This document shows positions 18,567 through 18,876 of a stretch of 27,584 bases of DNA, piece after piece. Source of the DNA: a virus (lineage: Duplodnaviria > Heunggongvirae > Uroviricota > Caudoviricetes); IMG/VR virus record IMGVR_UViG_640753024_000006, positions 1-27,584 of that record; one strand, written 5' to 3'. How positions within the stretch are numbered: position 1 is the stretch's first letter; each line of letters starts with the position of its first letter. The translations under genes and the position numbers were made by a program. The notes below the pieces were generated by a model. It did no database searches. It was not told the origin of the DNA and saw only the letters and a list, made by a program, of their open reading frames with translations.

Positions 18567-18642
18567 GGCCCTTTAGCTCAGTGGTGAGAGCGAGCGACTC
18601 ATAATCGCCAGGTCGCTGGTTCAAATCCAGCAAGGGCCACCA
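18567..18642 (+). tRNA. tRNA with anticodon CAU (Ile2/lysidine type, ileX/ileZ-like, or Met)
   Basis: Cloverleaf folds by hand: 7-bp acceptor GGCCCTT/AAGGGCC, D-arm GCTC..GAGC, anticodon loop CTCATAA, T-loop GGTTCAAATCC, CCA end. Confidence 0.8.
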
Positions 18643-18643
18643 A

Positions 18644-18720
18644 CCGTCACCAGTTCATCAGGAAAGAGCGTCAACCCTTTAAGTTGAGTGTGCGAGGTTC
18701 GAGTCCCCGGTGGCGGTCCA
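18644..18720 (+). tRNA. Aberrant tRNA-like element (anticodon-loop CCTTTAA, apparent anticodon UUU with C at position 33); possibly a degenerate tRNA
   Basis: Acceptor CCGTCAC/GTGGCGG (one G-U), T-loop GGTTCGAGTCC and CCA end, but non-canonical C33 and a mismatched T-stem. Confidence 0.35.
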
Positions 18721-18722
18721 GT

Positions 18723-18798
18723 GCCGACTTAGCTCAGCAGGCAGAGCAACTGACTTGTAATCAGTAGGTCACCAGTTCGATTCCGGTAGTCGGCACCA
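18723..18798 (+). tRNA. tRNA-Thr (anticodon UGU) candidate
   Basis: Acceptor GCCGACT/AGTCGGC, D-arm GCTC..GAGC, anticodon stem ACTGA/TCAGT with loop CTTGTAA, T-loop TTCGATT, CCA end. Confidence 0.7.
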
Positions 18799-18801
18799 TA
18801 T

Positions 18802-18876
18802 GCGGGTATCGTATAATGGCTATTACCTCAGCCTTCCAAGCTGATGATGCGGGTTCGATTCCCGCTACCCGCTCCA
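18802..18876 (+). tRNA. tRNA-Gly (anticodon UCC), glyT-like
   Basis: Acceptor GCGGGTA/TACCCGC, anticodon loop CTTCCAA, T-loop GGTTCGATTCC, CCA end; closely resembles E. coli glyT as I recall it. Confidence 0.85.

Follow-up and report, generated by a model that had tools for sequence, protein, structure and literature searches.

Within the lambdoid prophage DNA analysed here (IMG/VR virus record IMGVR_UViG_640753024_000006, 27,584 nucleotides (nt), referred to below as the window), four transfer RNA (tRNA) genes lie in tight succession, and the second of them, which we call element 2, belongs, as comparison with its relatives indicates, to a widespread and previously uncharacterised tRNA family and is not a case of random decay. 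Element 2 almost certainly originated, judging by alignment, from argN, a tRNA-Arg gene of Shiga toxin (Stx) and lambdoid phages, through a rewrite of its anticodon, and the common allele of the family is probably a working tRNA for Lys codons. Phage tRNAs have long been read only as codon supply, and recent work shows that certain phage tRNAs stand in for host tRNAs that defence nucleases have cut. To our knowledge, the characterised cases of such replacement all come from large virulent phages (T5, T4-like), with the exception of the tRNA-Thr of phage 21. A literature search on ileZ, argN and argO and on lambdoid tRNA-Lys returned no earlier description of element 2, within a limited coverage that left older Stx-phage papers outside.

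The tRNA array and the descent of its second member

The array consists of the following genes, called by ARAGORN and scored against the Rfam tRNA model RF00005, whose curated cutoff is 29 bits:

18567-18642, plus strand: tRNA of the Ile2 type, anticodon CAU (ARAGORN; Rfam tRNA 72.5 bits; PGAP tRNA-Ile)
18644-18720, plus strand: element 2, almost certainly argN-derived, anticodon UUU, with C33, C16, A20 and U73 (ARAGORN tRNA-Lys(ttt))
18723-18798, plus strand: tRNA-Thr(UGU) (ARAGORN; Rfam tRNA 69.8 bits; PGAP tRNA-Thr)
18802-18876, plus strand: tRNA-Gly(UCC) (ARAGORN; Rfam tRNA 65.6 bits; PGAP tRNA-Gly)

The spacers between them measure 1, 2 and 3 nt. The initial annotation, made from the letters of the window without database searches, had described four packed tRNA genes with one aberrant member, and both parts of this description were borne out: ARAGORN returned the same outer coordinates and anticodons (CAT, TTT, TGT and TCC), and Rfam and the NCBI accept members 1, 3 and 4 but not member 2. 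Members 1, 3 and 4 are canonical bacterial elongator tRNAs with a full cloverleaf, and none is rejected, all three scoring above the Rfam cutoff; in genomes with the identical array sequence, the NCBI annotation lists Ile, Thr and Gly only. The C33 and the UUU anticodon that had been read in the second element stand in a 7-nt loop, CCUUUAA. Additional tRNA remnants were looked for 3' of the window array, and none was found.

Among 109 viral arrays sampled, the following architectures were counted (numbers between genes are spacers in nt, and Lys-type stands for element 2 and its homologues):

Ile2-1-Lys-type-2-Thr-3-Gly: 87 of 109
Ile2-1-Lys-type-13-Arg(UCU): 10 of 109
Ile2-1-Lys-type-2-Lys(UUU on a thrU scaffold)-3-Gly: 5 of 109
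Other architectures: 7 of 109

Since the same four-gene architecture recurs with the same spacers in 87 of these 109 contigs, the pattern is not due to chance.

Element 2 is colinear over 77 nt with argN (tRNA-Arg UCG of the UTI89 and O157 prophages) at 82-83% identity, and is 76% identical to chromosomal tRNA-Arg(CCU), 59% to host lysT and 56% to the tRNA-Lys of phage T5; the alignment to ileZ, argN and argO that had been proposed at the outset proved to be the right test. The anticodon loop differs by U33C, C35U and G36U, which turn the CUUCGAA of argN into CCUUUAA. In the stems, pair 7:66 went from U-A to C-G (with a U-G intermediate in one argN allele), pair 27:43 from C-G to U-A and pair 30:40 from G-C to A-U. 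Over 24 distinct alleles 95.2% of the helix cells are paired, compared with 29-53% in slid-partner controls, and the four helices are kept across the homologues with covariation. Of 21 pairs only one (A51-C63) is broken by the 13 substitutions that separate element 2 from its nearest argN allele; for random substitution, a single broken pair has P=0.005 (unbiased) to 0.05 (transition-rich). The D-arm was also followed outside phages, with a loose pattern, CTCATCAGGANAGAGCG, scanned through GTDB genomes: among the matches listed, 117 motif-bearing chromosomal segments of other bacteria held 55 ARAGORN-called tRNAs, 54 of them tRNA-Arg(CCU) and one tRNA-Arg(ACG). These listed matches are unrelated chromosomal tRNAs from many phyla and are uninformative on the host range of the element 2 family.

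Copies of the second gene fall into two discrete classes, argN-type and Lys-type, without intermediates. The 10 of 109 arrays in which a Lys-type gene stands between ileZ and argO retain the 13-nt argN-argO spacer, which implies that the re-coding took place in situ within an ileZ-argN-argO array and that argO was replaced later. The element 2 family would have arisen there in place of argN, retaining the tRNA-Arg body, including the D-arm with A20, while compensatory changes preserved the acceptor and anticodon stems. A transitional array of this kind (ileZ, 1 nt, Lys-type gene, 13 nt, argO) is present at L250 1413-1652, in E. coli O145 RM9873 and a large group of Shiga toxin-producing E. coli (STEC); argO in this group lacks its CCA, and both its Lys-type element and argO look degraded. 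Some argN copies may be degraded too: a common argN allele (UTI89, L003 3151-3227), counted in 17 + 8 copies among the viral arrays sampled, shows the mismatches A6-A67 and A52-C62, and its cloverleaf lies 7 kcal/mol above the minimum free energy (MFE), yet it is annotated as tRNA-Arg.

Element 2 thus has a body nearer to another acceptor family than to that of its anticodon, as in an alloacceptor anticodon shift, where the body of one family bears the anticodon of another. An experimental switch from tRNA-Arg(UCU) to Thr(UGU) was reportedly described by Saks et al. in 1998 as tRNA gene recruitment; unlike that single anticodon mutation, element 2 is natural, widespread and phage-borne and shows three loop substitutions, U33C among them. 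We infer from the sequence a shift of amino-acid identity from Arg to Lys, in which the UUU anticodon would move charging from arginyl-tRNA synthetase (ArgRS) to lysyl-tRNA synthetase (LysRS); LysRS should be favoured by UUU, with U73 in place of A73 and the retained A20 as uncertain factors. The suggestion in the initial annotation of a decayed tRNA-Arg or tRNA-Lys, or an unusual functional tRNA, was right about an Arg scaffold and wrong about simple decay or an ordinary Lys tRNA, the window allele alone looking degraded.

Retention of A20 and of the whole Arg D-arm, together with the highly unusual C33, would also be expected of a recoding tRNA, either charged with Arg via A20 and inserting Arg at Lys codons or reading a shifted triplet (e.g. 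UUA reading UAA) through displacement of the U-turn by C33. This is very improbable: the loop is a standard 7-nt loop with A37 and A38, the neighbouring genes show no stop-codon or recoding signal, and all 11 open reading frames (ORFs) checked are intact. Among the bases by which ArgRS reportedly recognises its tRNAs C35 is a major one, as is U35 for LysRS (identity rules of Tamura et al. 1992 and McClain), which likewise speaks against recoding. Reading CCUUUAA as an ochre suppressor or a shifted anticodon was ruled out by the 7-nt loop, by A37 and A38 and by the lack of any other sign of recoding.

Distribution, conservation and the window allele

The element 2 family was found in 797 of 5,426 complete E. 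coli genomes (~15%). With 44.4 bits on the Rfam tRNA model the common allele passes the cutoff, and it is called tRNA-Lys by PGAP and by phage depositors; across pipelines the annotation of element 2 alleles is inconsistent, being tRNA-Lys, tRNA-Arg by analogy, or nothing. At least 119 IMG/VR contigs carry the exact anticodon arm of element 2, compared with no variant found in IMG/VR scans allowing other bases at positions 33, 34, 35 or 36. Element 2 retains A14, G18G19, A21 and the T-loop UUCGAGU, and departs from the conserved nucleotides at position 33, which is C in all copies, and at position 8, which is C in the window allele only. Within the U8 lineage (14 haplotypes, 36 copies) differences from the consensus number 5 in element 2, 5 in the Thr gene, 11 in the Gly gene and 2 in the Ile gene. 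MFE folding was not discriminating, as the cloverleaf is not the MFE structure for either Lys-type allele, and at 2.7 kcal/mol the common allele shows a gap comparable to those of genuine tRNAs (2.2 for host lysT, 4.5 for phage ileZ).

These data bear on an alternative that we regard as unlikely but deserving of weight, namely that the array is purely one of codon supply and that element 2 is, family-wide, a dead argN relic kept because it lies between useful genes. A relic would hardly be expected to gain three loop substitutions that make a clean new anticodon with A37 and A38 kept, nor to show three compensatory pair changes relative to argN and a single broken pair in 21 after 13 substitutions (P 0.005-0.05). 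Several features of the element nevertheless weigh against a working Lys tRNA and suit a dead passenger. C33 and U73 are atypical, host and T5 tRNA-Lys carrying U33 and A73, and could impair decoding or charging by LysRS; the common allele has the T-stem mismatch A51-C63, restored to A-U in a few copies; and the MFE fold of element 2 is not the cloverleaf. Degraded derivatives exist, one in the L250 STEC group, where a U8, common-type element 2 has a 1-nt D-stem deletion (an allele that makes up 12 of 109 viral copies), and one at L251, described below. The window allele itself is rejected by Rfam and by PGAP, and codon enrichment, presented in the next section, accounts for the other three members. 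The 44.4 bits of the common allele, the invariance of positions 33-36 in at least 119 copies and a U8-lineage diversity no higher than that of the Thr and Gly genes speak, in turn, for a gene that is being maintained.

The doubts are greatest for the allele present in the window, which carries three changes relative to the common allele: C4U and C11U, each giving a G-U pair, and U8C. It has lost U8 and fails the Rfam tRNA model, where it falls from the 44.4 bits of the common allele to below 18 and gives no RF00005 hit; its best clan match is to tRNA-Sec at 18 bits (E=0.63). Its cloverleaf is predicted at -17.2 kcal/mol, versus -22.3 for the common allele, and lies 7.0 kcal/mol above the MFE. 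ARAGORN does call it, but it is unannotated in every sampled genome carrying the identical sequence. It is present in ~170 genomes and in 22 of the 109 viral copies, and its descendant at L251 has five more changes, including G18A at the invariant G18, next to intact Thr and Gly genes. The window allele is probably hypomorphic or on its way to loss, and that it is still functional appears, from these features, somewhat doubtful.

Codon supply and nuclease targets

Codon rates were compared between 11 phage ORFs and 49 chromosomal genes of the closest strain (per thousand codons):

AUA: phage 10.0, host 3.1
ACA: phage 16.4, host 4.0
GGA: phage 14.3, host 6.3
AAA: phage 37.5, host 34.0
AGA: phage 7.3, host 1.8
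AGG: phage 6.1, host 0.6
AAG: phage 18.6, host 9.6

The phage set includes a long ORF (1139 aa, window 22535-25954) directly after a small-terminase-like gene. AUA, ACA and GGA are rare in the host sample, as had been anticipated, and are 3.2, 4.1 and 2.3 times commoner in the phage genes; the Ile2 (AUA), Thr (ACA) and Gly (GGA) genes are ordinary decoders of rare A-ending codons enriched in phage genes. The codon-usage comparison put forward by the initial annotation therefore supports supply for these three members and leaves Lys-UUU unexplained, given that AAA is no rare codon and that host genomes already hold a median of 6 genes for tRNA-Lys(UUU). The kinase and PP2C genes upstream of the array are AT-rich (37-40% G+C) and rich in AGA, AGG and AUA, as had been noted, the kinase using 17.9, 21.5 and 35.8 of these per thousand, respectively. 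The 11 phage ORFs show a strong excess of AGA and AGG, and the window array contains no decoder for them, so that the Arg codons of the kinase cannot be served by it; with no tRNA-Arg among the four members, the link drawn earlier between the array and the AGA and AGG codons of these genes fell away.

The anticodon of element 2 is that of a host tRNA attacked by nucleases. AriB, the nuclease of the PARIS system, has Lys-UUU and Thr-UGU as its prime targets (PMC12409363). It cuts tRNA-Lys at the bond U36AAUC/A41, after C40; cleavage is lost with U39A and impaired with A41C and, to a significant degree, with U16C (PMC12409363). Infection in the presence of PARIS is rescued by the Lys and Thr tRNAs of T5 (plus Asn) (PMC12409363), and T5 tRNA-Lys is not cleaved by AriB (PMC11464382). 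PrrC cleaves 3' of U33 and has host tRNA-Lys(UUU) as its main target (PMC2610378). P2 Old, in a study that screened a library of 245 coliphage tRNAs, was found to cut 3' of the C in CNG motifs that pair within the anticodon stem, thrU being the best target (PMC12445682); the Thr tRNA of phage 21 resists it, and host thrU gives little or no protection (PMC12445682). At the positions concerned, the tRNAs compare as follows:

Host lysT: positions 36-41 UAAUCA; U16
T5 Lys: positions 36-41 UAAACC; C16
Element 2: positions 36-41 UAAGUU (3 mismatches relative to host); C16; no CNG (argN: CAG/CUG)
Window Thr: positions 36-41 UAAUCA; C16; CNG/CNG retained

Element 2 combines the anticodon of the targeted host tRNA with substitutions at the mapped determinants: at the level of sequence it is without every mapped AriB determinant, and its C33 is located, by alignment, at the PrrC cleavage bond. 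The product would be a Lys decoder on a foreign scaffold without the features read by host-directed tRNA-Lys nucleases, that is, without U39, C40, A41 and U16 for AriB and with C33 at the scissile bond for PrrC, and together with the phage Thr-UGU it would sustain late translation when host tRNA-Lys and tRNA-Thr are cleaved. We propose only tentatively, from these correspondences, that nuclease evasion is the selective reason for element 2. It is similarly a possibility short of probable that lambdoid phages have re-coded a tRNA-Arg scaffold into a Lys decoder that escapes AriB (positions 16 and 39-41) and possibly PrrC/RloC (C33) and forms, with Thr-UGU, a two-tRNA antidote. On the broader description of the locus as a compact mobile module, comprising a promoter-like element and four tRNA genes and serving both codon supply and, through a nuclease-evading Lys decoder, defence, our judgement is evenly balanced.

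A close parallel is T5, which also has Lys-UUU and Thr-UGU in one phage, and whose tRNA-Lys shares with element 2 both C16 and departures from the host tRNA at positions 39 and 41, each of these an AriB determinant (PMC12409363). The two tRNAs differ in type, that of T5 being of the Lys type, though diverged, with U33 and A73, and element 2 having an Arg-type scaffold that bears C33 and U73; of the Thr tRNAs, that of T5 carries G39, whereas the one in the window retains UAAUCA in full and is changed at U16 and U20 only. T5 is moreover a virulent phage for which resistance and rescue have been demonstrated, and the window element is a temperate prophage known from sequence comparison. Phage 21 is, like the phage of the window, a lambdoid phage with a Thr-UGU gene, but unlike the Old-resistant phage 21 tRNA the window Thr retains the CUG/CAG motifs of thrU and the full 5-bp stem, and should therefore be Old-sensitive. 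Element 2 has lost both CNG motifs of the argN anticodon stem (CAG/CUG to CAA/UUG), a change of the kind that reduces Old cleavage in resistant tRNAs (PMC12445682). Any relevance of P2 Old to element 2 is speculative. Old was rejected as the driver, since its critical target is thrU, whose anticodon arm the array Thr keeps, and host thrU is non-protective. Paired CAG/CUG with A37, the mark of P2 Old substrates, is also seen in host and phage glyT (window 18828-18844) and in argN (L004).

The evading role meets objections of its own. The usual Thr allele is identical to host thrU in most arrays and so should be cleavable as the host tRNA is, and it is host thrU that protected hardly or not at all when P2 Old was the nuclease (PMC12445682). 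The thrU-scaffold UUU copies of 5 of the 109 arrays keep the AriB site. A nuclease role further presupposes that lambdoid phages trigger PARIS, and the case for expression, processing, charging and resistance of element 2 is built on sequence. As for the other members, we know of no nuclease that targets Gly-UCC or Ile2.

Element 2 may instead be a working Lys decoder selected for Lys supply during the late burst, or for tuning of decoding or frameshifting at A-rich sites, and not for defence, an explanation that we consider unlikely. The rate of AAG, 18.6 per thousand in phage compared with 9.6 in host genes, is in its favour, and UUU also having arisen on a thrU scaffold with the AriB site kept fits it better than it fits escape; neither AAA nor AAG is rare, however, and with a median of 6 host tRNA-Lys(UUU) genes such supply would seem superfluous, while the Arg scaffold, C33 and changed positions 39-41 are left unexplained when lysT could have been copied, as thrU and glyT were.

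Quite improbable, in our view, is a non-decoding role, either as a tRNA-like decoy that binds or titrates a tRNA-directed nuclease or as a structural spacer in the tightly packed precursor, directing its cleavage by RNase P and its 3' processing. Belukhina et al. consider that viral tRNAs, when overexpressed, might inhibit AriB by competing (PMC12409363), but a decoy for AriB should keep its recognition features, all of which element 2 has lost. With spacers of 1-3 nt the folding of each tRNA sets the ends of its neighbours, and C33 and U73 are possibly tolerable in an RNA never used on the ribosome; the strict conservation of the anticodon triplet argues for decoding all the same, and the neighbours are intact in arrays where ARAGORN no longer calls element 2.

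Companion genes, promoter-like element and prophage setting

The other members of the array have separate histories. The window tRNA-Ile2 is identical to ileZ of Stx and lambdoid phages, which is 100% identical between argN-type and Lys-type arrays and in 45 of 48 sampled copies. The phage Thr and Gly genes, in their commonest alleles, match at 100% the chromosomal genes thrU and glyT, whose source locus in the host has the order coaA / thrU-tyrU-glyT-thrT / tufB (chromosomal copy compared: L125 602-961). Homology runs from +1 to CCA in each gene, and tyrU and the host spacers are missing from the phage arrays; capture by an RNA-mediated route or by selective trimming is possible. The window Thr differs from host thrU by U16C (18738) and U20C (18742) in the D-loop and by nothing else, and the window Gly differs from host glyT by a compensatory change of C6:G67 to U6:A67. 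Complete E. coli genomes with this Thr-Gly haplotype number 94, enterotoxigenic E. coli accounting for many, and the LT-IIb toxin phage SerU-LTIIb has it as well. Anticodon switches on the thrU scaffold were observed twice: from UGU to UUU (G35U, with A26G) in 5 of 109 viral arrays (L073 3480-3555, minus strand), and from UGU to UCU (G35C, with A31G and G24A) in SerU-LTIIb (L248 1122-1197), where the depositors call a tRNA-Arg.

Directly upstream of the array lies a promoter-like element, and further landmarks of late transcription flank it:

18529-18566, plus strand: promoter-like element with -35 TTGCAG (18529-18534), a 17-nt spacer, -10 TATTAT (18552-18557) and the GC-rich discriminator TCTGCTCCC ending at ileZ +1
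14556-15251, plus strand: late antiterminator Q gene (Pfam Phage_antiter_Q, E=4e-84; PGAP annotation of a 97.5%-identical prophage)
15298-15319, plus strand: strong terminator-like hairpin directly after Q, in a tR'-like position (8-bp stem, then a T run)
19152-19171, 19195-19212 and 19304-19319, plus strand: three terminator-like hairpins between the array and the holin gene

The -35 (TTGCA(A/G) or TTGA..), the 17-nt spacing, TATTAT and the GC-rich stretch are kept in more than six unrelated upstream contexts, and the sequence 5' of the -35 is unrelated between these contexts. Homology of the window array to arrays in other contexts starts at 18528, as seen with the array of F1053, and ends at 18877, just after the CCA of the Gly gene. 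The conservation across contexts and these limits of homology imply that the array behaves as a self-contained module, and the element looks like the module's own sigma-70-type promoter of the stable-RNA kind. A sigma-70 promoter scan left it unflagged because its match to the consensus, 8/12, is below the scan threshold. The array may, on this evidence, be expressed outside late transcription as well. It lies 3' of Q and 5' of the lysis genes, and a hairpin after Q acting in the manner of tR' would place the array and everything downstream inside the Q-antiterminated late unit; terminator-like sites are in general more frequent in the region than in shuffled sequence (14 found, 4.4 expected). 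The initial annotation, which stopped at codon supply, had missed the thrU and glyT origin, the promoter-like element and the standing of Lys-UUU and Thr-UGU as nuclease targets.

The window as a whole is a lambdoid prophage with genes for integrase, excisionase, exonuclease, dicB, DicF, cI/cro-like regulators, replication, hokD/sok, DUF968, RusA and Q. After Q follow, in order, a Ser/Thr kinase, a PP2C phosphatase, a DNA methyltransferase (17468-18517), the tRNA array, holins, an M15 endolysin and terminase. The pair of kinase (eukaryote-like Ser/Thr) and PP2C genes occupies 15321-16900 between Q and the methyltransferase at 37-40% G+C and is possibly phage-exclusion or signalling cargo. Rfam matches elsewhere in the window are the DicF small RNA (4985-5036, minus strand, 76.4 bits), the sok antitoxin RNA adjoining hokD (12372-12546, plus strand, 117.7 bits) and IS009 RNA (26297-26495, plus strand, 225.2 bits).

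In its setting the array resembles the ileZ-argN-argO arrays of Stx and lambdoid phages, standing like them between Q and the lysis cassette, with the 100% identical ileZ first, the same promoter-like element and a second gene homologous to argN (82-83%). It differs in that the second gene has UUU and C33 in place of UCG and U33, that the spacer between ileZ and this gene is 1 nt and not 5-9 nt, and that argO is replaced by thrU and glyT copies, no Arg codon being decoded. As genes 2 and 3 are not tRNA-Arg (UCG, UCU), the window array is a derivative of the ileZ-argN-argO type and not a member of it. Clusters of the T4 type are tightly packed and processed by RNase P, and the window array shares with them gaps of a few nt and an overlapping set of anticodons (Ile-CAU, Thr-UGU and Gly-UCC, as compared with the T4 and T5 sets) for rare A-ending codons. 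Unlike their diverged phage tRNAs, it has thrU and glyT copies of host genes (verbatim in the commonest haplotype), and it stands in the late operon of a temperate phage with its own promoter-like element.

Should element 2 be a relic, what remains is a plain supply array that includes a pseudogene. The element 2 family is, on the sequence comparisons assembled here, a plausible candidate for a Lys decoder with which temperate phages evade tRNA nucleases. If this is true, prophages that are common in E. coli, among them relatives of the Stx and LT-II toxin phages, would carry anti-PARIS or anti-PrrC antidotes, and these would be the first counter-defence tRNAs described in lambdoid prophages. 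Escape would then have been achieved by a scaffold swap, in which the target anticodon is placed on an unrelated scaffold, and not by a build-up of point mutations, and C33 would offer a natural probe of how far anticodon nucleases and the ribosome tolerate the loss of the universal U33.

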